From positions 1 through 16,169 of IMG/VR virus record IMGVR_UViG_2540341091_000001: a DNA stretch of 16,169 bases; one strand, written 5' to 3'. The notes below the pieces were generated by a model. That model saw only the letters and a program-made list of their open reading frames with translations, had not been told where the DNA came from and made no database searches. The translations under genes were made by a program, and so were the position numbers. Below are positions 1 to 13,260 of this stretch, piece by piece (positions within the stretch are counted from its first letter, which is position 1; every line of letters begins with the position of its first letter). Source of the DNA: a virus (Duplodnaviria; Heunggongvirae; Uroviricota; Caudoviricetes).

Positions 1-474
1 ATGTACAGTCCGGTACAAATAGCCAATAAATTCATAACGTTGGGAAACCAACATCATAATCCTCTGACCCACATGCAACTGCAGAAGCTTACTTATATTG
101 CCCATGGTTACTATTTAGCATTAACAGGTAAGCCTTTGCTCAATGAATGTGTCTCCGCGTGGAAGTACGGTCCAGTTATTCCTGGAATGTACGATGCTTT
201 CAAAGACTATGGGAATAAACCTGTTACGAATGTAGCAGTAGCTCCTTTTGGTGGCATCGTTACTATGGATCCGCAAGCAGAGAGCATTATCGGGGCTGTT
301 TATAAGTTTTACGGCTCGAAAAATGGAATTGAGTTATCAACTCTAACTCATATGCCAGGTACGCCTTGGTCACAAGCTTATAATGGTATTGGCTCGTCGA
401 TCATCTCAAATGATGCGATCAAGGCTTATTATCATGATTTATTGAATAACCGACAGCAATGTCAGGGCCTCTGA
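1..474 (+). CDS. Panacea-domain (DUF4065; GepA/SocA-like) protein, putative antitoxin or phage-associated protein; start coincides with window edge so the true N-terminus is unverified
   Basis: ORF-track translation contains the motifs I associate with the Panacea domain (LQKLTYIAHGYYLALTGKPL, AWKYGPVIP, THMPGTPW). Followed 22 bp later by a co-directional membrane-protein gene. Family assignment is from memory. Confidence 0.6.
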   Translation: MYSPVQIANKFITLGNQHHNPLTHMQLQKLTYIAHGYYLALTGKPLLNECVSAWKYGPVIPGMYDAFKDYGNKPVTNVAVAPFGGIVTMDPQAESIIGAVYKFYGSKNGIELSTLTHMPGTPWSQAYNGIGSSIISNDAIKAYYHDLLNNRQQCQGL

Positions 475-4271: not shown

Positions 4272-4946
4272 TTAGGCCTTTATTTTGTATCTTCTTGGTT
4301 TTCCTGAGAAAATCACTGTACCAATTATAGAGCAATTACCGTTGATCTTAATGTAAGGTTCAGGCCAGTTTGGGTTTAATGCTTTGAGGTAACGCTGTGT
4401 TCCATCTTCTATCAACCGCTTGAAGGTGGTTTCGCCTGTATCGTGCATCAATGCAATAACGTCGTCACCGTGGCAGGCAGGGACTTCAGGATCAACAAAA
4501 ATCATGTCTCCCGGGCGGTACTCATCAATCATTGAATCACCAATCACCCGCAAGATATAAGTCATTTCGCCACAGGGTACAGGGCAGGGATAAGTTTCTG
4601 CTGTGCTCAAATCAACCTCAGAATAGCCAACTTCTTTCCATGCTCCGGCCTGTACCCATGATATGACAGGGACTAACGTTATTTGTTTGTTAGTGATTGA
4701 AACGTCAGGTTTTTTTGTGATGTTCGTTGTCTGGTGTTCTTGATCAAGCCATCCGACAGGCAGGTCGAAACATTTTTCGATGTGCCGTGCCATGCTGTCA
4801 CCGATATTTTTAGTTGCACCATCTCCCATAAACCTGCTGGTCTGGGTTGGCTCGCGATCAATCATGGTGGCAAAGGAAGAATTCCCGCCAACACCATCTC
4901 TCAGTTTTCTGGCGTTAGACCGCCGGATGTCATGGACTGTTTTCAT
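4272..4946 (-). CDS. cI: cI-like prophage repressor: N-terminal HTH plus C-terminal S24 (LexA-like) autopeptidase domain
   Basis: 224 aa. C-terminal domain has the Ser (VIGDSM) and Lys (TFKRL) typical of S24 self-cleaving repressors. Divergent from a cro-like gene with operators between them. No Shine-Dalgarno before the ATG, consistent with a leaderless pRM-type transcript. Confidence 0.8.
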   Translation of the reverse strand: MKTVHDIRRSNARKLRDGVGGNSSFATMIDREPTQTSRFMGDGATKNIGDSMARHIEKCFDLPVGWLDQEHQTTNITKKPDVSITNKQITLVPVISWVQAGAWKEVGYSEVDLSTAETYPCPVPCGEMTYILRVIGDSMIDEYRPGDMIFVDPEVPACHGDDVIALMHDTGETTFKRLIEDGTQRYLKALNPNWPEPYIKINGNCSIIGTVIFSGKPRRYKIKA

Positions 4947-4963
4947 AAAGAAATTAAAACCTT

Positions 4964-5030
4964 TGTACCGATAAGGTACAAGTATCTTGAAGGTTCATCT
5001 CAATCATGTAATATGTATACCGGAGGTACA
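4964..5030. promoter_or_regulatory. oR-like operator cluster with divergent pRM/pR promoters
   Basis: 17-bp sites TGTACC-GATAA-GGTACA (4964-4980) and TGTATA-CCGGA-GGTACA (5014-5030), plus a degenerate site AGTATC-TTGAA-GGTTCA (4981-4997). Candidate pRM on minus strand TTGTAC-N17-TTTAAT ends about 7 nt before the cI ATG. The 5014-5030 site overlaps the cro RBS. Confidence 0.45.
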
Positions 5031-5036
5031 TGTTGT

Positions 5037-5258
5037 ATGAAAGCGTATTGGGACTCTTTAACCAAAGAACAGCAGGGTGAGTTGGCCGGAAAAGTTGGCT
5101 CAACACCAGGCTACTTACGGCTGGTTTTCAATGGTTATAAAAAAGCCAGTTTTGTGCTGGCTAAAAAACTTGAGCAATGCACGTCAGGTGCAATTACGAA
5201 ATCTGACTTAAGACCGGATATCCCACAGCCAGTATCAGCGATTTGCTGGTTGTGGTGA
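5037..5258 (+). CDS. Cro/YdaS-like small DNA-binding protein
   Basis: 73 aa from ATG 5037 with GGAGG at 5022-5026; HTH-like segment LAGKVGSTPGYLRLVFNGYKKASFVLAKKLEQCTSGAI. The longer track ORF (4734-5258) overlaps cI antisense and is rejected. Confidence 0.6.
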   Translation: MKAYWDSLTKEQQGELAGKVGSTPGYLRLVFNGYKKASFVLAKKLEQCTSGAITKSDLRPDIPQPVSAICWLW

Positions 5259-5313
5259 TGAAGAAATCCACAGCAGGTATCACGATTAGCTGAATTTTCA
5301 TAACCCATATGCG

Positions 5314-5337
5314 GGCGCCATTTCTGGCGCCTTTTTT
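5314..5337 (+). terminator. intrinsic terminator after the cro-like gene
   Basis: Stem GGCGCCA (5314-5320) / TGGCGCC (5325-5331), loop TTTC, then TTTTTT (5332-5337). Confidence 0.55.
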
Positions 5338-5361
5338 ATTGCAGAAAAGCGAGAGGTAATT

Positions 5362-5961
5362 ATGCGTAAACTTTATGCCGCCATTTTGTCCGCAGCCATC
5401 TGTCTGGCCGTATCCGGTGCGCCTGCATGGGCGTCTGAACATCAGTCCACGCTGAGCGCGGGCTATCTTCATGCCTCGACGAACGTTCCCGGCAGCGATG
5501 ATCTGAACGGGATTAACGTGAAATACCGTTATGAGTTTACGGACACACTAGGGCTGGTGACGTCATTCAGCTATGCAGGAGACAAGAATCGCCAGCTGAC
5601 TCATTACAGCGATACCCGCTGGCATGAAGATTCCGTGCGTAACCGCTGGTTCAGCGTGATGGCGGGGCCGTCTGTGCGCGTGAATGAATGGTTCAGCGCG
5701 TATGCGATGGCGGGTGTGGCTTACAGCCGTATTTCGACTTTCTCCGGGGATTATCTCCGCGTAACTGACAACAAGGGGAAAACGCACGAAGTGCTGACCG
5801 GAAGTGATGACGGTCGCCGCAGCAACACGTCTCTGGCGTGGGGGGCTGGCGTGCAGTTTAACCCGACCGTATCCGTGGCCATTGATATTGCTTATGAAGG
5901 CTCCGGCAGTGGCGACTGGCGCACTGACGGTTTCATCGTGGGTGTCGGTTATAAGTTCTGA
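5362..5961 (+). CDS. lom: Lom (Ail/Lom family outer-membrane protein), lambda lom homologue
   Basis: 199 aa with a signal peptide; C-terminus ...AYEGSGSGDWRTDGFIVGVGYKF matches lambda Lom as I remember it; internal INVKYRYE and SVMAGP motifs; RBS GAGAGG at 5351-5356. Confidence 0.85.
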   Translation: MRKLYAAILSAAICLAVSGAPAWASEHQSTLSAGYLHASTNVPGSDDLNGINVKYRYEFTDTLGLVTSFSYAGDKNRQLTHYSDTRWHEDSVRNRWFSVMAGPSVRVNEWFSAYAMAGVAYSRISTFSGDYLRVTDNKGKTHEVLTGSDDGRRSNTSLAWGAGVQFNPTVSVAIDIAYEGSGSGDWRTDGFIVGVGYKF

Positions 5962-5988
5962 TTAGCCAGGTAACACAGTGTTATGACA

Positions 5989-6014
5989 GCCCGCCGGTTC
6001 AGGCGGGCTTTTTT
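5989..6014 (+). terminator. intrinsic terminator between lom and the tail-fibre gene
   Basis: Stem GCCCGCC (5989-5995) / GGCGGGC (6002-6008) followed by TTTTTT (6009-6014). Confidence 0.55.
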
Positions 6015-6025
6015 GTGGGGTGAAT

Positions 6026-9000
6026 ATGGCAGTAAAGATTTCAGGTGTACTGAAAGACGGTGCAGGTAAACCGGTACAGAACTGCACAATCCAGCTGAAA
6101 GCAAAACGTAACAGCACCACGGTGGTGGTGAACACGGTGGCATCTGAAAATCCGGATGAAGCCGGGCGTTACAGCATGGACGTTGAGTACGGTCAGTACA
6201 GCGTTATTCTGTTGGTGGAAGGCTTCCCGCCATCGCATGCCGGGACCATCACCGTGTATGAAGACTCACAACCGGGTACGCTGAATGATTTTCTCGGTGC
6301 CATGACGGAGGATGATGCTCGTCCGGAGGCACTGCGCCGCTTTGAACTGATGGTGGAAGAGGTGGCGCGTAACGCGTCCGCAGTGGCACAGAACACGGCA
6401 GCCGCGAAGAAGTCAGCCAGCGATGCCAGCACATCAGCCCGGGATGCGTCGGCTTCAAAAGAGGCAGCAAAATCATCAGAAATGAGCGCAGCCTCTTCGG
6501 AAACGGCGGCAGGAAATTCCGCGAAGGCCGCAAAAACGTCTGAGACGAATGCGGATAACAGCGCACAGGCGGCAGCGGCCTCACAAACTGCATCGGCAAA
6601 CTACGCGACAGCCGCCAAAAAATCAGAAACCAACGCGAAAAATAGCGAGGCAGCAACAAAGAGCAGTGAAACAAACGCGGCGAAATCTGCGGCGGACGCA
6701 CTTAATTATCGCAACCAGGCGCAATTAATTGTTGGCGATAATATCGGTCTTGGCTCAGCCCCGCGTGATTGTCCTGATATTTCCGGCAACCCATCAGGGT
6801 ATATCGGATTTATGCGCATTATGAGTAATGCAAAAGGCTTTCCATCGATTGCATCCGGTGAAAGCAGTCTTACGGGGTTTATTAGTCAGGTAGATGGAAC
6901 ACCAGCGTATACAGGTGTATTTCAGGGATGGGCTACGCGCTCGCTTTATACTTATCGCTGGAATCCGACAATAGGCCCGCAATGGACACGCCACGCAAGA
7001 AAAGATGAGGTTATCCGATTTCAGCGTTCAAGCGACACAAGAACCATCATTTTATCTACTGACGTTCAGGCGGACGGCTGTTACTTACAGGTTGATGCTG
7101 ACGGTCAGTGGGGCGCATTTAACCCTAAAGCTGGTAGATGGCAACCGCTCGCAGTTGCGCAAGGTGGCACAGGGGCGAATGATGCAAGTACAGCGCGCTC
7201 TAAACTTGAAGTCATGTTTGAAGCAAAAACTGGCCTTGATGCGAATACGAACTTAAACGATATAAAAGGTACTACAGCCGGTTTTTATTACCAACCAATG
7301 TCTGCCAACGCAAAGCCAGAACTAAATTACCCGATACAGCTTGCTGGTGCATTGTTAGTGCAAAGAACTGGTGCTAATGGTAGTGATGGTTGTATCCAGA
7401 GCTATTTTGTATATAACAATTCATCAATTCTTTATAGAAGGATATATACCAGCACACAAGGTTGGAGTGTATGGAAAAAAATAGTATTAACAGAAAGAAT
7501 TGAAGAAGGCGAATCGACTACTTACGTTTATTCGAATTACTCACCATCAGCGCCACGACTTCAGGTGTCAACATCTGGATTGTGGGGTTGCCATAACGGA
7601 TCGTCATGGGTTCCATTACCTATTGGACAAGGAGGCACTAATGCGGCAACTGTTGATGGTGCCAGAACGAATCTTGGCTTAGGTAGGAACAACAGCCCTC
7701 AACTTAACAGTCTATTTCTTGATAGATATAGTGATTCGACCAATACATACACATCTAGTGGAATTCTCCATACAAGACTGTTAGCAACTGACAGCACTGT
7801 GCGTCTTGGTGCTGATATGTATGTTGAGACTTTATCAAATGAGCCAGGTCAATTAACAATAAGGTTTACATACGATGGTTCAACTGGTGCTTCAAAATAT
7901 CTAAACCTTAACTCAGAAGGTAATTTAATTGTAGATAGTGCGATACTGAGATCAACGGTTGAAAAACCTTTACAAATAAGGAGCGCTAACCCAGCAATAA
8001 GATTTAATGAAACAGATCGCCCGGCTAACACGCCTACTTATACTCTCATTGCTAATGCTGGTGACTGGTTTATTCAGAAACGCGATTATGATGATGCCGG
8101 AAGCGTTAGTAACGCAATTGCATATAATTTCGCAAACGACAGAATTGATGTGCAAAATCTTAAAGCGTCTGGGTTAATTACAGCTAACTCAGGAATCGCA
8201 ACATTAACAGGTCATGACTGGAACGCTCAGCATACTGATAACGTCGACAAATTTAGACCAATTGCAGGCAGTACAAACGGCCCGGCAGGCTCTATGGTTC
8301 TTGGCGGCATTCATGTTCAATTTAGTAAAAATTATGCTGTGCAGTTCGGAGGCCGCAATTCCGGTTTTTGGGGAAGAACAATTGAAAATGGAACGACGCA
8401 GGAATGGAAGAAATTACTAACAGTAGACGATCTCAATTCATCTACCGATCTTGCTGTCAGGTCATTAACCACATCTAACCCGGTAAAATCTGGCGGAGGG
8501 CGAATTGATGTCCTTGGAAGCACGTCAGACTATAGCAAAATGGATTGCTTTGTACGTGGGTTTGATAGCACCGGTAATTCTCTCGCGTGGGCGTTGGGTT
8601 CATCAGTCGGCGTAAGTAAGATGCTGTCGCTAAAAAATTTCTTTAGCGGAGCTGAGATACTGCTAAATGGTAATGACGGCGCGGTTCAACTCAAAACAGG
8701 TGCTGTTAACGGTGCTAAAGCGCAGGCGCTCACTATCAACAAGGATGAGGTTAACTCAACTGTTGATTTAACTCTTACAAAACAAACAGGGACTGGCAAT
8801 CGTTTTGTTTTACAGAACTTAGGTAATACAGAACTACCATTTGCTGTCAAGGTGTGGGGTTCAGGTGATCGACAAAACGTTTTTGAGGTTGGAACGTCTG
8901 CCGCGTATCTGTTTTATGCTCAAAAAACATCGTCAGGTCAGCTGTTTGATGTAAACGGTGCTATTAACTGTACAACACTGAATCAGTTATCAGACCGCGA

Positions 9001-9367
9001 GCTGAAAGACAATATTCAGATTATCAGTGACGCAACCGAAGCTATCCGTAAAATGAACGGGTACACCTACACACTTAAGGAAAACGGACTGCCTTACGCT
9101 GGTGTTATTGCACAGGAAGCAATGGAGGCAATACCGGAAGCGGTAGGCTCATTCACTCATTACGGTAAAGAGTTGCAGGGACCAACGGTTGACGGCAATG
9201 AATTACGTGAAGAAACACGTTATCTGAATGTTGACTACGCCGCCGTGACGGGCTTACTTGTTCAGGTCGCCCGTGAAACAGATGATCGCGTTACCGCGCT
9301 GGAAGAAGAAAACGCAGAATTAAAACAAAGATTATCTGCAATTGAGGCGGCGCTTGCCTCTAAATAA
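6026..9367 (+). CDS. stf: side tail fibre: lambda Stf-like N-terminus, divergent central/distal region, C-terminal intramolecular-chaperone (peptidase S74-like) domain
   Basis: N-terminus MAVKISGVLKDG...GRYSMDVEYGQYSV...HAGTITVYEDSQPGTLNDFL is near-identical to lambda Stf as I recall it. Real ATG is 6026 (the track begins at a GTG at 6020). C-terminal 125 aa (SDRELKDNI...TALEEENAELKQRL) resemble the self-cleaving chaperone domain of endosialidase-type fibres. Confidence 0.85.
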   Translation: MAVKISGVLKDGAGKPVQNCTIQLKAKRNSTTVVVNTVASENPDEAGRYSMDVEYGQYSVILLVEGFPPSHAGTITVYEDSQPGTLNDFLGAMTEDDARPEALRRFELMVEEVARNASAVAQNTAAAKKSASDASTSARDASASKEAAKSSEMSAASSETAAGNSAKAAKTSETNADNSAQAAAASQTASANYATAAKKSETNAKNSEAATKSSETNAAKSAADALNYRNQAQLIVGDNIGLGSAPRDCPDISGNPSGYIGFMRIMSNAKGFPSIASGESSLTGFISQVDGTPAYTGVFQGWATRSLYTYRWNPTIGPQWTRHARKDEVIRFQRSSDTRTIILSTDVQADGCYLQVDADGQWGAFNPKAGRWQPLAVAQGGTGANDASTARSKLEVMFEAKTGLDANTNLNDIKGTTAGFYYQPMSANAKPELNYPIQLAGALLVQRTGANGSDGCIQSYFVYNNSSILYRRIYTSTQGWSVWKKIVLTERIEEGESTTYVYSNYSPSAPRLQVSTSGLWGCHNGSSWVPLPIGQGGTNAATVDGARTNLGLGRNNSPQLNSLFLDRYSDSTNTYTSSGILHTRLLATDSTVRLGADMYVETLSNEPGQLTIRFTYDGSTGASKYLNLNSEGNLIVDSAILRSTVEKPLQIRSANPAIRFNETDRPANTPTYTLIANAGDWFIQKRDYDDAGSVSNAIAYNFANDRIDVQNLKASGLITANSGIATLTGHDWNAQHTDNVDKFRPIAGSTNGPAGSMVLGGIHVQFSKNYAVQFGGRNSGFWGRTIENGTTQEWKKLLTVDDLNSSTDLAVRSLTTSNPVKSGGGRIDVLGSTSDYSKMDCFVRGFDSTGNSLAWALGSSVGVSKMLSLKNFFSGAEILLNGNDGAVQLKTGAVNGAKAQALTINKDEVNSTVDLTLTKQTGTGNRFVLQNLGNTELPFAVKVWGSGDRQNVFEVGTSAAYLFYAQKTSSGQLFDVNGAINCTTLNQLSDRELKDNIQIISDATEAIRKMNGYTYTLKENGLPYAGVIAQEAMEAIPEAVGSFTHYGKELQGPTVDGNELREETRYLNVDYAAVTGLLVQVARETDDRVTALEEENAELKQRLSAIEAALASK
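6380..6710 (+). repeat. in-frame Ala/Ser/Thr-rich tandem peptide repeats within stf
   Basis: Translation shows repeated units such as AAKTSETNADNS, AAKKSETNAKNS, ATKSSETNAAKS, as in lambda Stf. Confidence 0.4.
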
Positions 9368-9403: not shown

Positions 9404-9697
9404 ATGAAAATGGGTATAACACCTTTCCTTCATGCACTTTGTGCTGTGGCTGCGCAGATACTGGTGGGGCTTTTTACCGGAAACTGGGTTTACGGAGCGA
9501 TAGCCAGTTGTACGTTCTTCATTGCGGGCGAACACACCCAAGCATAATATCGCTGGATTGAAATGTTCGGGCATGGCAAGCGGATTAACATGCCGTGGTG
9601 GGGCGGTTTTGATCCACGCGCATGGGATGTGGCAAGCCTGATGGATTTTGCTGTGCCGATGGTAGCGTGTCTTCTGATCTGGCTGTTGATCCGTTGA
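9404..9697 (+). pseudogene. small hydrophobic (membrane) protein gene interrupted by an in-frame TAA at 9545-9547
   Basis: Frame from ATG 9404 gives MKMGITPFLHALCAVAAQILVGLFTGNWVYGAIASCTFFIAGEHTQA, then TAA, then continues in the same frame for 49 codons (YRWIEMFGHGKRINMPWWGGFDPRAWDVASLMDFAVPMVACLLIWLLIR) to TGA at 9695-9697. Not in the ORF track because each half is under 60 aa. Confidence 0.35.
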
Positions 9698-9705
9698 ACA
9701 TAAAA

Positions 9706-9741
9706 AGCCGCAGCAACTTGCCATGGCAGGATACTGCGGCT
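9706..9741. terminator. putative bidirectional terminator between the small membrane-protein gene and the convergent RT gene
   Basis: 8-bp stem AGCCGCAG (9706-9713) / CTGCGGCT (9734-9741) with a 20-nt loop containing the palindrome TGCCATGGCA; A-run upstream and T-rich DNA downstream. Confidence 0.3.
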
Positions 9742-9804
9742 GGTTTGTGAGTTTAAATAGTGTGTTTATTGCGATATATTTTAATGACTTAATGGATTAC
9801 ATAT

Positions 9805-10668
9805 CTATGATATTCCTGAAATATCCTCTTCAAGCTCTTTTACTGATTTCGCAATTTTAAATTTAAACTTCCTCTCTATTTCACTATTGCTAAGTTTTTT
9901 TTCCTTCTCTTTACCTATCCACATAGAAACAAGTTCTCGTTTCTGAGATATATGTAGATTGTCAAAGTTAGGTATGTATTTAAAAGTCTCCGCTCTACCT
10001 CTGCGGAGTTCATAGAAAGTTTTAATCAAAGATTTTGGTTTTATTTCTGATGAAAGGCCGAATCGGCGGATAAGATTATTGATAGTATGATTAACAGAGC
10101 GAAGTTGAGCTGTTGAGGTTATTTGTGAGAAGTACGATACCCATCCCAATCGTTTACCTTCAAACACACATCCCGTAATTCTGAGATTTAGTTTCCACTG
10201 ACAATATGCAACAGCTCGTTCTTTATCACGCTTACTTTTAGCTTGTAGTAGAGCGTGCCTATATGCAGTAAAAATTTTTGCTAAGGATGACTCAAATCTA
10301 AGAATGCTCTCATGTTTTATCAATAATTCTCGATTTTCTATGTGGTATCCCAAAAAGTTAAAACTTTCATCCAAACTGCCTACTTTGGATTTTGAGTTCT
10401 CTTCATTTAATGGATGTGGGTTTAAATTTAATGATTGAAGCTTATCAATGATATGAGAAGCTATTTTTGTTGCTTGATATTTTGGTGTTAAAATAAGAAT
10501 GTCATCAACGTATCGCATGTACCATATGTCATGCATTTTATTGATTTCATCATCGAAATTAGATAGTGATATTTCAGCTAAAATGTTTGATATCGCTAAT
10601 CCCTGAGGTACTCCTCTGGTATTATTAGGGATACCTTTGCTTCCTGTGGTTCCACTTACAGTAGGCAC
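9805..10668 (-). CDS. reverse transcriptase, C-terminal segment (motifs 3-7 and a 170-aa C-terminal extension); in the -1 frame relative to the N-terminal segment
   Basis: Translation has GVPQGLAISNILAEI (motif 3/4), YMRYVDDILIL (the YxDD active site) and FNFLGYHI (motif 7). The track start is a GTG; this frame is open upstream to a TAG at 10708-10710, so it spans the A6G site of the upstream segment. Confidence 0.8.
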   Translation of the reverse strand: MPTVSGTTGSKGIPNNTRGVPQGLAISNILAEISLSNFDDEINKMHDIWYMRYVDDILILTPKYQATKIASHIIDKLQSLNLNPHPLNEENSKSKVGSLDESFNFLGYHIENRELLIKHESILRFESSLAKIFTAYRHALLQAKSKRDKERAVAYCQWKLNLRITGCVFEGKRLGWVSYFSQITSTAQLRSVNHTINNLIRRFGLSSEIKPKSLIKTFYELRRGRAETFKYIPNFDNLHISQKRELVSMWIGKEKEKKLSNSEIERKFKFKIAKSVKELEEDISGIS

Positions 10669-10685
10669 GATTAATGATGATGTTA

Positions 10686-11174
10686 TTAACTGTCTAATTT
10701 CTTTTTTCTAATTTTATTTTTTATTGCATTAATTATCAATTTATGTTCAATTGAAGGATAGAAACTTTTAAGATCTATTTTTGCATATTCAGCATATAGA
10801 CTGTTGTTTAATGCTTCTTTCAATGAGTCAATTACTGTATGTGGTAGTTTTAATCTGGACTTAGGATATATTTCCGTAAGGCATTCACAGAGAGCTCTAA
10901 GAGTAATTCTGTCCCTAGCAGTTGGTATGGAAATCTGTCTGGGTGTAGAGTTAGCGCCTTTAGATATTAATTTTTCTTTATATGCTGTAAATTTGTAATT
11001 GCCAGAATTAACCTTTTCAAAAATGAAAGTGATCTCATTTTTTATTGTCAAATCAAGTTTTGATGGGCGAATCCGATCTATGCCAATCGCTCCTGATTCT
11101 TTGATTTTTTCAGAGTATACTTTTAGAAGATTTTTTTTCGAGAATGACTTTTTAAAAATTCTGCTTGCAGTCAT
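10686..11174 (-). CDS. reverse transcriptase, N-terminal segment (fingers, motifs 1-2); frame ends 15 nt after an A_AAA_AAG heptamer
   Basis: ATG at 11174 (the track begins at a TTG at 11180). Motifs GIDRIRPSKL, PRQISIPTARDRITLRAL and AKIDLKSFYPSI. Start overlaps the 3' end of the upstream membrane-protein gene by 23 nt. Confidence 0.75.
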   Translation of the reverse strand: MTASRIFKKSFSKKNLLKVYSEKIKESGAIGIDRIRPSKLDLTIKNEITFIFEKVNSGNYKFTAYKEKLISKGANSTPRQISIPTARDRITLRALCECLTEIYPKSRLKLPHTVIDSLKEALNNSLYAEYAKIDLKSFYPSIEHKLIINAIKNKIRKKKLDS

Positions 11175-11703
11175 AGTCAATCCAAAGATATATTAATGGG
11201 AGTATATAAAGTGCGGCAGTAATAAATATTCGAAGTAATATCCATAAAATAACAATTATTTTTTCTTTTTGTGTGGGGATCCTCGTCTTAAGTCCAACTT
11301 GAGTTACCCTTGAAATTTTATCATCTATGTCACGGTGATTCTCAACCTCATTGAGCAAATTAAAATATTTTTCTTTCTGTTCAAGAGATAACTGTTGACT
11401 GGTGGTAATGTCAAAATAGAGTCGCTGTAGTGCAATATAATTCCTTCTCATGGCTATTGCTCGACCACGAAAATCTAGGTTAGATACGATCAGAGAAATA
11501 CCCAGTAGAGCCACTGAAAGTATCGCCGCAACGACATCTGTATTATCTCCTAGAACCTTTGGAAATCGCAACGTTACAATTGAAAGTACCGCACTCAATA
11601 TAGCATACCAAACGAGGATAAATTGAGAGTGTTTTTCAAGCCATTCTAGTCGATGGTGCGCTTGGATACGTGCTTTATATGTAAACCAAATATTGTCATG
11701 CAT
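11152..11703 (-). CDS. multi-pass membrane protein (two N-terminal TM helices plus a C-terminal hydrophobic helix), possibly SLATT-like; candidate effector partner of the RT
   Basis: 183 aa; hydrophobic segments FILVWYAILSAVLSIVTL, VVAAILSVALLGISLIVS and IIVILWILLRIFITAALYILPLIYLW around a charged helical middle. Translationally coupled to the RT. SLATT assignment is an unverified guess from architecture. Confidence 0.6.
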   Translation of the reverse strand: MHDNIWFTYKARIQAHHRLEWLEKHSQFILVWYAILSAVLSIVTLRFPKVLGDNTDVVAAILSVALLGISLIVSNLDFRGRAIAMRRNYIALQRLYFDITTSQQLSLEQKEKYFNLLNEVENHRDIDDKISRVTQVGLKTRIPTQKEKIIVILWILLRIFITAALYILPLIYLWIDYDCKQNF

Positions 11704-11727
11704 AAAAGATCCTTTTTAAAAGCGGAA

Positions 11728-11808
11728 GGGGCAGGATATATTGGAACCGTTGAACATCCTGCCCGGCAGGATCAGTGAGCATAAGCTCAACAGTAAAATA
11801 TTACTGTT
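11728..11808 (-). other. structured 5' leader of the membrane-protein/RT operon (candidate cis-regulatory RNA or RT-associated ncRNA)
   Basis: 9-bp stem GGGCAGGAT (11728-11736) / ATCCTGCCC (11755-11763) with an 18-nt loop; 20-bp palindrome AACAGTA-AAATAT-TACTGTT (11789-11808). Confidence 0.3.
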
Positions 11809-11865
11809 CATTATCAGAGCCGCCCTTGCATGCGCAAGAGGAAAAACCTGCCCCATCCCTTTGAA

Positions 11866-11894
11866 TTATTACAATTTAATGATCTTAAAGTCAA
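11866..11894 (-). promoter_or_regulatory. candidate sigma70 promoter for the membrane-protein/RT operon
   Basis: Minus strand TTGACT (plus 11889-11894), 17-bp spacer, TAATAA (plus 11866-11871); about 30 bp from the IS2 left end. Confidence 0.3.
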
Positions 11895-12015
11895 TACAAG
11901 TGAATGGTGTCCAGAGATGATGAATAGACTGGCCCCCTGAATCTCCAGACAACCAGTATCACTTAAATAAGTGATAGTCTTAATACTAGTTTTTAGACTA
12001 GTCATTGGAGAACAG

Positions 12016-12381
12016 ATGATTGATGTCTTAGGGCCGGAGAAACGCAGACGGCGTACCACACAGGAAAAGATCGCAATTGTTCAGCAGAGCTTTGAACCGG
12101 GGATGACGGTCTCCCTCGTTGCCCGGCAACATGGTGTAGCAGCCAGCCAGTTATTTCTCTGGCGTAAGCAATACCAGGAAGGAAGTCTTACTGCTGTCGC
12201 CGCCGGAGAACAGGTTGTTCCTGCCTCTGAACTTGCTGCCGCCATGAAGCAGATTAAAGAACTCCAGCGCCTGCTCGGCAAGAAAACGATGGAAAATGAA
12301 CTCCTCAAAGAAGCCGTTGAATATGGACGGGCAAAAAAGTGGATAGCGCACGCGCCCTTATTGCCCGGGGATGGGGAGTAA
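12016..12381 (+). CDS. insC: IS2 transposase OrfA (InsC)
   Basis: [41 protein letters not shown]... is the IS2 InsC sequence; ATG 12016 with GGAG at 12007-12010. The track ORF from 11971 is an upstream extension. Confidence 0.9.
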
Positions 12382-13244
12382 GCTTAGTCAGCCGTTGTCT
12401 CCGGGTGTCGCGTGCGCAGTTGCACGTCATTCTCAGACGAACCGATGACTGGATGGATGGCCGCCGCAGTCGTCACACTGATGATACGGATGTGCTTCTC
12501 CGTATACACCATGTTATCGGAGAGCTGCCCACGTATGGTTATCGTCGGGTATGGGCGCTGCTTCGCAGACAGGCAGAACTTGATGGTATGCCTGCGATCA
12601 ATGCCAAACGTGTTTACCGGATCATGCGCCAGAATGCGCTGTTGCTTGAGCGAAAACCTGCTGTACCGCCATCGAAACGGGCACATACAGGCAGAGTGGC
12701 CGTGAAAGAAAGCAATCAGCGATGGTGCTCTGACGGGTTCGAGTTCTGCTGTGATAACGGAGAGAGACTGCGTGTCACGTTCGCGCTGGACTGCTGTGAT
12801 CGTGAGGCACTGCACTGGGCGGTCACTACCGGCGGCTTCAACAGTGAAACAGTACAGGACGTCATGCTGGGAGCGGTGGAACGCCGCTTCGGCAACGATC
12901 TTCCGTCGTCTCCAGTGGAGTGGCTGACGGATAATGGTTCATGCTACCGGGCTAATGAAACACGCCAGTTCGCCCGGATGTTGGGACTTGAACCGAAGAA
13001 CACGGCGGTGCGGAGTCCGGAGAGTAACGGAATAGCAGAGAGCTTCGTGAAAACGATAAAGCGTGACTACATCAGTATCATGCCCAAACCAGACGGGTTA
13101 ACGGCAGCAAAGAACCTTGCAGAGGCGTTCGAGCATTATAACGAATGGCATCCGCATAGTGCGCTGGGTTATCGCTCGCCACGGGAATATCTGCGGCAGC
13201 GGGCTTGTAATGGGTTAAGTGATAACAGATGTCTGGAAATATAG
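12339..13244 (+). CDS. insD: IS2 transposase OrfB (InsD), normally made as an OrfAB fusion by -1 frameshift at A6G (12333-12339)
   Basis: 301-aa DDE-type integrase-fold protein matching IS2 InsD; slippery A_AAA_AAG at 12333-12339 lies in the orfA/orfB overlap. Confidence 0.9.
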
Positions 13245-13260
13245 GGGCAAATCCATGAAC

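Follow-up and report, generated by a model that had tools for sequence, protein, structure and literature searches.

The locus studied here is, judged by its sequence, very probably a prophage-borne DRT10 system (UG17, class 2 UG/Abi) with the SLATT-RT (UG17-A) architecture, nearly identical to Eco3DRT10, but present, as sequenced, as a copy whose reverse transcriptase (RT) gene is frameshifted and which would be inactivated or strongly attenuated. It was identified in the viral window, i.e., the whole stretch of 16,169 nucleotides that was analyzed, and the strain is APEC O78. The combination of UG17 and SLATT entered the catalogues in 2022 (PMC9226505), and the name DRT10 followed in 2025 (PMC12632851). 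DRT10 is a tripartite system of a non-coding RNA (ncRNA), a SLATT membrane protein and an RT, in which the ncRNA is essential. A sequence-only reading of the same DNA had recognized the SLATT and RT genes as a two-gene module, which holds for the two genes; the essential ncRNA, which is located outside the segment 9805-11703 covered by that reading, was missed, as was the IS2 element. The features of the locus are summarized in Table 1.

Table 1. Features of the DRT10 locus and its surroundings in the window.
Feature	Position	Strand	Remarks
Tail fibre gene	6020-9367	+	
Likely intrinsic terminator of the operon	9702-9741	-	Hairpin 9741-9706, then UUUU; MFE -21.3 kcal/mol, z -3.41; putative function
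RT gene, 3' fragment	9805-10668	-	Annotated as 287 aa from GTG; PQG, YVDD, R371, C-terminal priming serine S456
RT gene, 5' fragment	10686-11174	-	Stop of the 0 frame after 162 aa; N-terminal part, upstream of YVDD; 23-nt overlap with SLATT gene
Frameshift site	10701-10707	-	A6 run 10707-10702, then G10701; A_AAA_AAG heptamer in the 0 frame as sequenced
SLATT_5 membrane effector gene	11152-11703	-	Intact, 183 aa; PADLOC, Pfam and NCBIfam profiles
DRT10 ncRNA	11858-11722	-	137 nt (Eco3DRT10 numbering); upstream of SLATT gene
Template loop A-B-A'	11740-11752	-	Template CAACGGUUC 11752-11744; realignment segment CAAU 11743-11740
ncRNA SL5	11772-11756	-	
ncRNA SL4	11788-11777	-	
ncRNA SL3	11808-11789	-	
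ncRNA loop A	11822-11809	-	
ncRNA SL2	11840-11823	-	
ncRNA SL1	11858-11847	-	Paired with 11735-11724
ncRNA promoter	11865-11894	-	TTGACT 11894-11889, 18-nt spacer with TG, AATAAT 11870-11865
IS2 insertion	11925-13255	+	Outside the DRT10 system; terminal inverted repeat starts at 11925; RefSeq IS2 transposase

Family Assignment of the RT and the Membrane Protein

The two genes overlap on the minus strand, as had been noted from the sequence, with the RT starting from the ATG at 11174. After the stop of the 0 frame at 10686, the remainder of the RT is read one base back, in the -1 frame, up to a stop at 9805. The frame is interrupted at the A6 run, which splits the gene into two open reading frames. 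The proposal that the addition of one A to this run restores the frame was borne out, since the repaired protein (9805-11174 plus one A) has the same sequence as WP_001678535.1, the intact RT of E. coli AR434, and across 2201 bases the two loci differ in nothing but the missing A. The repaired RT consists of 456 aa, close to the 455 aa that had been estimated, with the YVDD motif at residues 222-225. The Pfam RVT_1 domain spans residues 72-279 and is followed by a C-terminal part of 177 aa, slightly longer than the extension of about 170 aa previously described. The protein ends with ISGIS, the last residue being S456, and the same end was found in all five E. coli alleles (5/5). A tract of seven A instead of six was found in 4/4 other E. 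coli alleles matched, and the homologous RTs are encoded by a single open reading frame of 454-457 aa in nine of nine diverged loci. Another A-tract, A8, is located at nucleotides 30-37 of the RT gene. Slippage from A7 to A6 may recur in unrelated E. coli lineages.

In the PADLOC profile search, the repaired RT matched RT_UG17 over its entire length (E-value 1.2e-158, 526 bits; residues 1-456 aligned to all 429 positions of the profile), followed by Drt3a as the runner-up (4.4e-37) and by weaker cross-matches to Drt2 (1.2e-24) and Drt9 (7.8e-20). The suggestion of a UG/Abi/DRT-type RT was thereby confirmed, while the opinion that it fits no named family from its sequence, and might represent a variant not yet described, proved wrong. 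An assignment to DRT3 (UG3+UG8) was rejected, given that Drt3a (NF041747) scored 112.6 bits against a cutoff of 200 and that the locus contains a sole RT gene and no Drt3b.

That the RT instead belongs to a retron or a group II intron is a reading to which we give practically no credence. Some database records label the protein as a retron-type RT, among solved structures, RTs of group II introns and of the retron type are the most similar in sequence, with a group II intron RT (6AR1) as the best match (3e-14) in the PDB copy searched, which contains no DRT10 entry, and there is weak similarity across families to the profiles retron_St85_RT (58.7 bits) and TIGR04416 (group_II_RT_mat; 144 bits). 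These scores are, however, far under the curated cutoffs of 235 and 300, respectively, as compared to the full-length match to UG17, and the NAxxH motif, a retron hallmark already reported as missing, was not found in the RT. Nor did a search of the whole window against Rfam 15, which contains no model for the DRT10 ncRNA, yield a match to any family, including retron msr and group II intron RNAs. The RNA that is associated with the RT is the DRT10 ncRNA.

The 183-aa protein encoded upstream of the RT was identified as SLATT_5 by profiles from PADLOC (RTasSLATT, 1.5e-56), Pfam (1.3e-28, 100 bits, cutoff 29.5) and NCBIfam (136 bits, cutoff 60), which answers the question of a membrane effector raised by the sequence-only reading. 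It is identical to WP_000543834.1 and contains three hydrophobic stretches, approximately residues 27-46, 55-76 and 148-173, in agreement with the multi-pass membrane protein described previously.

The module has the tail fibre gene on one side and DinI, the integrase and dusA downstream of it on the other, consistent with the slot between the tail fibre and the integrase to which it had been ascribed. A megablast search of the phage collection gave no match.

The ncRNA and Its Template

The promoter of the ncRNA is the best sigma-70-like site in the region 9600-12100 (10 of 12 matches, extended TG), is invariant across six E. coli alleles, and is located 7 nt upstream of ncRNA position 1. The ncRNA is predicted to fold with a minimum free energy of -57.2 kcal/mol (z -4.58), and compensatory changes were observed in 16 of the 36 consensus pairs in an alignment of 12 sequences from 9 genera, where 97.4% of the cells were paired, versus about 50% in slid controls (0/500 shuffles). 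Residues U43, G44, G86, G104, C107, G111, C116, A117 and U119 agree with the published Eco3 ncRNA (10.64898/2026.06.29.735271), and the location of the ncRNA gene is likewise as published. [quoted passage not shown]

The template CAACGGUUC and the following CAA(U) occupy ncRNA positions 107-119, 3 nt past SL5, and a CAA...CAA pattern of 9-11 nt was found in each of the 11 distinct loops examined. From CAACGGUUC followed by CAAU, we predict that the present allele would direct the synthesis of 9-nt cDNA repeats of the sequence 5'-GAACCGTTG-3'. The same template variant is also present in loci from Klebsiella and Photorhabdus, which suggests that it is the commoner form. The allele also holds a GUUC...GUUC repeat in an 8-nt register, which could lower the precision of the repeats and, if used, would give an 8-nt CGTTGAAC periodicity.

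Comparison to Known Systems

We compared the locus to Eco3DRT10, to which the link was made by the accession number OKX54664.1 given in a cryo-EM preprint (10.64898/2026.06.29.735271) and an exact-sequence look-up. The RT allele of E. coli ETEC4069, with a 2-aa extension from a TTG start, corresponds exactly to OKX54664.1, and the repaired RT differs from OKX54664.1 at 5 of 456 residues (98.9% identity), so that the system, as identified by its sequence, is one already known from work on a closely similar allele. Both loci have overlapping genes in the order ncRNA-SLATT-RT, and both RTs, once the present one is repaired, have 456 aa, the YVDD motif, R371 and the terminal priming residue S456. 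The SLATT proteins differ at 4 of 183 residues (98% identity), and the ncRNAs are collinear, 137 nt long, and have the same five stem-loops, with the template at C107-C115 and A' at 116-119. The templates differ at bases 110 and 112, being CAACGGUUC here and CAAUGAUUC in Eco3DRT10, each followed by CAAU, of which the latter is the published template (PMC12632851) and is also present in the ETEC4069 allele. The predicted repeats consequently differ, with GAACCGTTG for the present allele versus GAATCATTG for Eco3DRT10, and the A-A' homology amounts to 3 nt plus one G-U here as compared to 4 nt in Eco3DRT10. Unlike Eco3DRT10, the present locus has a frameshifted RT (A6), and its ncRNA promoter is preceded, at a distance of 31 bp, by an IS2 element.

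The UG17-A system of Escherichia sp. E3659 has the same subtype and architecture, with an ncRNA upstream of the SLATT gene, but represents a more distant allele that produces 7-nt repeats from another template (10.64898/2026.04.29.721553). Its ncRNA of about 143 nt is independently transcribed, the cDNA consists of tandem repeats, and the toxicity is under the control of SbcB (10.64898/2026.04.29.721553). DRT9 (UG28) and DRT2 (UG2) resemble DRT10 in having a class 2 UG RT, an ncRNA template and synthesis of repetitive cDNA, which in DRT9 is also protein-primed. However, DRT9 makes poly-dA from a U-rich template, uses a tyrosine for priming and forms a hexamer, DRT2 builds a neo gene by rolling-circle copying, and SLATT is not an obligatory effector in either of them. 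Retrons with 2TM effectors, such as Retron-Ec48, are likewise prophage or defense-island modules in which an RT and its ncRNA are combined with a small membrane effector, but the present locus falls short of the retron RT profiles and lacks both msr/msd and branched msDNA, and the cDNA of DRT10 is a protein-linked tandem repeat. With telomerase (TERT and telomerase RNA), DRT10 shares a short internal RNA template, realignment on A', a template boundary set by a stem-loop and repeat-addition processivity (PMC12632851). It differs from telomerase in being protein-primed and compact (456 aa), in forming a 2:1 complex with the RNA and in serving defense rather than chromosome ends.

Mode of Action

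Published work on Eco3DRT10, the RT of which has been characterized genetically, biochemically and by cryo-EM, has shown that the separately transcribed ncRNA of 137 nt binds two RT monomers, that the RT uses its C-terminal serine (S456) as the primer for copying the short loop B template, and that the cDNA realigns on A' to yield kilobase-long single-stranded tandem repeats; the defense depends on an active RT as well as on the ncRNA and the SLATT protein (10.64898/2026.06.29.735271; PMC12632851). For the repaired allele, we infer protein-primed synthesis of repeat cDNA and a defense dependent on the RT, SLATT and ncRNA from the identity of its RT to OKX54664.1. For DRT10, abortive infection by way of the SLATT protein has been put forward as a working model. 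According to such models, phage infection would alter the level or the processing of the cDNA, with the involvement of SbcB or a phage SSB-like protein, and the altered cDNA would unleash the toxicity of SLATT. Since the change from A7 to A6 breaks the RT before the catalytic motifs, the copy described here, as sequenced, is expected to express the ncRNA and SLATT together with full-length RT in small amounts at most.

Origin and Consequences of the Frameshift

The missing A may reflect either a genuine mutation that recurs or a sequencing error in the homopolymer. If it is an error left over from the 454-based assembly of APEC O78, the DRT10 locus would be fully functional. The lesion is indeed a one-base length change in a homopolymer, and Newbler 454 contigs served as the reference for the assembly (PMC3622999). 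The same-serogroup strain chi7122 has an intact RT of identical amino acid sequence (CCK49377.1), and the annotation shows one intact RT in every other complete genome of E. coli that was listed, the list covering about 85 of 188; how frequent A6 is among the 188 was judged from the annotation of these listed records. Yet the assembly was corrected with Illumina reads at about 539x and checked by PCR and Sanger sequencing (PMC3622999), and the A6 allele is present in the independent genome ECZU34 (GCA_016587035.1), which has a different 3' RT allele, other tail-fibre genes, no IS2 and no further indel. A6 is also present in two Logan assemblies, although these are possibly noisy, with one further homopolymer deletion in each. 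An assembly error is thus a possible, although rather unlikely, explanation. The RT frameshift, which ECZU34 shares, and the IS2 insertion are the two features that set this strain apart. The IS2 element, which is absent in AR434 and the other alleles compared, is located 31 bp upstream of the -35 box of the ncRNA promoter and 5 bp past the dinI stop, and is transcribed divergently.

The heptamer A_AAA_AAG is highly slippery in E. coli, as is known from dnaX. By placing it in frame, the change from A7 to A6 could permit some -1 slippage, which would remake the wild-type RT at a low level, the product of such a slip being exactly that of the wild type (IRKKEIRQL). The split RT could accordingly be read as a regulated gene, in which dnaX-like programmed -1 ribosomal frameshifting yields both a short and a full-length RT. 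As a native feature, this was rejected and is considered highly improbable, because the tract is A7 and in frame in other E. coli alleles, the nine diverged homologs also have one open reading frame, and neither a stimulatory structure downstream of the heptamer (z +0.33) nor a Shine-Dalgarno-like element upstream of it was found in the sequence. Slippage on the heptamer would be at most an incidental leakiness. It is also improbable, if slightly less so, that the A7 tract, together with A8, serves as a contingency switch of a defense system that is toxic, costly and dependent on SbcB, with the "off" A6 allele being attenuated and reversible rather than dead. Loss of sbcB as the cause of the RT inactivation was rejected, since the annotation of APEC O78 shows an intact sbcB.

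Implications

For annotation, the locus shows that an "RNA-directed DNA polymerase," a "hypothetical protein" and a "SLATT" entry can together represent one DRT10 locus, the ncRNA of which is unannotated. DRT10 is of importance as a bacterial RT system that makes telomerase-like tandem repeats and has been proposed to be a relative of telomerase, as already published. To this, the window adds a natural variant of the template, with its predicted GAACCGTTG repeats, and what appears to be an example of natural inactivation, by a homopolymer frameshift and with an IS2 element beside the promoter, which is in keeping with the toxicity reported for UG17 under limiting SbcB.

Identity of the locus

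The minus-strand locus in the window is a copy of DRT10, in essence the Eco3 model system of E. coli with a broken RT gene, and it is not novel. Two overlapping minus-strand genes and a disrupted RT frame, as described in a sequence-only reading, were confirmed by reading the ORFs. The 0 frame of the RT gene reaches a stop after 162 aa, at position 10686, and the remainder, including the YVDD motif, is encoded one base back, in the -1 frame, down to position 9805. The repair proposed in that reading, one A added to the A6 run (10707-10702), yields a 456-aa protein, the repaired RT, with exactly the sequence of the uninterrupted RT of E. coli AR434; the missing A is the sole difference between the window and AR434 over 2201 bases.

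Along its whole length, the repaired RT matched PADLOC RT_UG17 (E 1.2e-158, 526 bits); the next-ranked profiles were Drt3a (4e-37), a generic RT model, UG4 and Drt2. All scores to the NCBIfam models were far below the curated cutoffs (group II intron RT, 144 bits against 300; Drt3a, 113 against 200; Drt2, 76 against 390; retron St85, 59 against 235), and Pfam recovered RVT_1 only (residues 72-279). The 183-aa protein was identified as SLATT_5 by PADLOC ("RTasSLATT", 1.5e-56), Pfam (1.3e-28) and NCBIfam (136 bits, cutoff 60), and contains three hydrophobic segments. Given the UG17 match and the SLATT_5 partner, the RT is of the UG/DRT type with a membrane effector, and neither a retron nor a group II intron RT, in line with the sequence-only reading. 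The suggestion that it was unplaceable and perhaps an undescribed variant does not hold, since the repaired RT differs from the Eco3DRT10 RT (OKX54664.1) at 5 of 456 residues. The SLATT proteins differ at 4 of 183 residues, and the Eco3DRT10 RT landmarks (YVDD, R371, S456 and the length of 456 aa) are all present in the repaired RT. OKX54664 is annotated with two additional N-terminal residues (10.64898/2026.06.29.735271), and the window correspondingly has TTG as an alternative start, two codons ahead of the RT ATG; by exact-sequence look-up, the RT allele of E. coli ETEC4069 plus this extension equals OKX54664.1.

The combination of UG17 and a SLATT partner was catalogued in 2022 as a class 2 UG/Abi group, and was noted to make sbcB indispensable in certain strains of E. 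coli (PMC9226505). In 2025, the UG17 system was shown to provide phage defence and was named DRT10; it requires the RT, the SLATT protein and an ncRNA of about 137 nt encoded upstream of SLATT, and the RT uses its own C-terminal serine as primer and copies a short template repeatedly, with A-B-A' realignment, into kilobase-long tandem-repeat ssDNA (PMC12632851). Two 2026 preprints describe SbcB regulation and a phage SSB-like trigger (10.64898/2026.04.29.721553), and, by cryo-EM, one ncRNA with two RT monomers (10.64898/2026.06.29.735271).

Features of the locus and its surroundings (window coordinates)
Feature	Position	Strand	Remarks
Panacea domain-containing protein	1-474	+	RefSeq annotation
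Hypothetical protein, 182 aa	497-1045	+	RefSeq annotation; after Panacea gene
LexA-family repressor gene	4272-4946		
lom	5362-5961		
Tail-fibre gene	6020-9367		1115 aa
Short ORF between tail fibre and RT	9410-9697	+	annotated pseudogene with internal stop
Probable operon terminator	9741-9702	-	hairpin, then U-run
RT gene	11174-9805	-	ATG at 11174; discontinuous; 23-nt overlap with SLATT gene
Second homopolymer, A8	11138-11145	-	near RT gene 5' end (RT nt 30-37)
SLATT gene	11703-11152	-	183 aa
Template loop	11740-11752	-	polymorphic; compared with loci L004 (5024-5160), L008, L010
DRT10 ncRNA	11858-11722	-	upstream of SLATT
ncRNA promoter-like site	11894-11865	-	TTGACT-18-AATAAT with TG; best-scoring in region
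IS2, complete copy	11925-13255		1331 bp; flanked by 4-5 bp (A)TGAA duplication

The ncRNA and its template loop

The sequence-only reading was right about the RT and its membrane effector, and missed the third component, the ncRNA, which lies outside the coordinates it covered. The predicted fold consists of a GC-rich basal stem (SL1) and four more stem-loops (-57.2 kcal/mol, z -4.58). Numbered from the first G, the ncRNA matches all the Eco3 landmarks (U43, G44, G86, G104, C107, G111, C116, A117 and U119). An independent test of the structure drew on nine divergent loci (RT identity 59-84%) in Serratia, Klebsiella, Pantoea, Photorhabdus, Pectobacterium, Morganella, Aeromonas and Pseudomonas. 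In each of the nine, a single-ORF RT is overlapped by SLATT_5, and a recognisable ncRNA lies upstream. In a 12-sequence alignment, 97.4% of the cells in 36 consensus pairs were paired, as compared to about 50% with slid partners, and compensatory changes were found in 16 of the 36 pairs, as compared to 1-4 in slid controls and 0 of 500 shuffles. Within E. coli, the ncRNA is highly conserved (3 differences in 137 nt) save for its polymorphic template loop, and its 69-nt 3' segment in the window has exact matches in 82 of 188 E. coli genomes.

Three bases past SL5, loop B of the window reads CAACGGUUC followed by CAAU, whereas the Eco3/ETEC4069 allele has CAAUGAUUC followed by CAAU. The latter is the published Eco3DRT10 template, which gives GAATCATTG repeats (PMC12632851). 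For the window allele, the mechanism described for Eco3 predicts repeats of 9 nt, GAACCGTTG: the last three cDNA bases at the 3' end would realign on CAA, with a G-U pair at the fourth position. Mismatches at this position are tolerated in Eco3 (PMC12632851). The CAACGGUUC template was also found in most E. coli alleles sampled and in the Klebsiella (L008) and Photorhabdus (L010) loci, and a CAA-anchored A-B-A' pattern of 9-11 nt was present in all loops examined.

Origin of the RT frameshift

The window derives from E. coli APEC O78 (NC_020163.1, about 237.7-253.9 kb). A survey of 5426 complete E. coli genomes recovered the locus at >=90% identity in 188, and one intact RT is annotated in all the other records listed (about 85 of the 188). 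Strain chi7122, likewise O78, has an intact RT protein of identical sequence. The APEC O78 assembly has a 454 scaffold, which makes a sequencing or assembly error at the A6 run possible, although the assembly was corrected with 539x Illumina coverage. Also against an error, the identical A6 allele is the sole indel in the locus of ECZU34 (GCA_016587035.1, L027), which has another 3' RT allele and other tail-fibre genes than the window and lacks IS2. A6 was also seen in two Logan assemblies, each with a second homopolymer deletion, which may be noisy. On balance, we consider it fairly likely that A6 in APEC O78 is a real mutation. DRT10 toxicity is suppressed by an exonuclease, the sbcB product (10.64898/2026.04.29.721553), but its loss does not account for the lesion, since the APEC O78 annotation shows an intact sbcB.

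As sequenced, the 0 frame runs through the frameshift site as A_AAA_AAG. This heptamer is the classic -1 slippery sequence of E. coli, and a -1 slip there would regenerate the exact wild-type RT. A conserved slippery design was rejected: elsewhere an A7 run is in frame, the homologues are single ORFs, and no stimulatory structure was found at the site (folding z +0.33). That the heptamer could make the A6 allele leaky is an improbable reading. The A8 and A7 tracts make the RT gene prone to frameshifts or homopolymer sequencing errors.

Disruptions of the DRT10 RT and SLATT genes recur among other E. coli (L017-L021, L023-L025, L027, L028 and H55). In one Logan assembly (L019) the A8 tract is shortened to A7, in GCA_045582745.1 the A7 tract is A8, codon 120 carries a nonsense mutation in the RT/SLATT locus of ERR4920114, and IS1 lies within SLATT in strain 510016 (H55). 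In five draft assemblies the contigs share one starting base within the RT, a pattern suggestive of an IS insertion at that point.

Genomic setting

IS2 interrupts the sequence 5 bp beyond the dinI stop, with its left end 31 bp upstream of the -35 box. The insertion spares both the ncRNA promoter and the RNA, and neither AR434 nor any other allele examined carries it. At the other end of the locus, the hairpin and U-run probably terminate the operon.

A degraded prophage is integrated at dusA, and the window spans its right arm. Much of the prophage has been lost (4272-9367): the LexA-family repressor and truncated YdaS-family fragments abut lom and the tail-fibre gene, with no head or tail genes annotated between them. 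The short ORF next to the RT is also a pseudogene in AR434, and is intact in ETEC4069 and HCM-28C-2. The Panacea protein and the adjacent 182-aa protein, encoded in the same remnant, may form a pair of the PanA type, acting as toxin-antitoxin or in defence.

In every case the ncRNA-SLATT-RT module is flanked by tail-fibre genes on one side and a dinI-like gene on the other. The prophages that carry it occupy at least three chromosomal attachment sites: dusA (L001/L002), prfC (L004/L006) and yecD-aspS (L003). The adjoining tail-fibre cassettes differ among these prophages, and in THO-003 a macro-domain protein is encoded among the tail-fibre genes. The neighbours of diverged DRT10 loci (L012-L015) include nSTAND3 in Klebsiella, HNH_5 in Morganella, a second RT in Aeromonas and Methyltransf_35 in Pseudomonas, and such defence-type neighbours fit a defence-island context.
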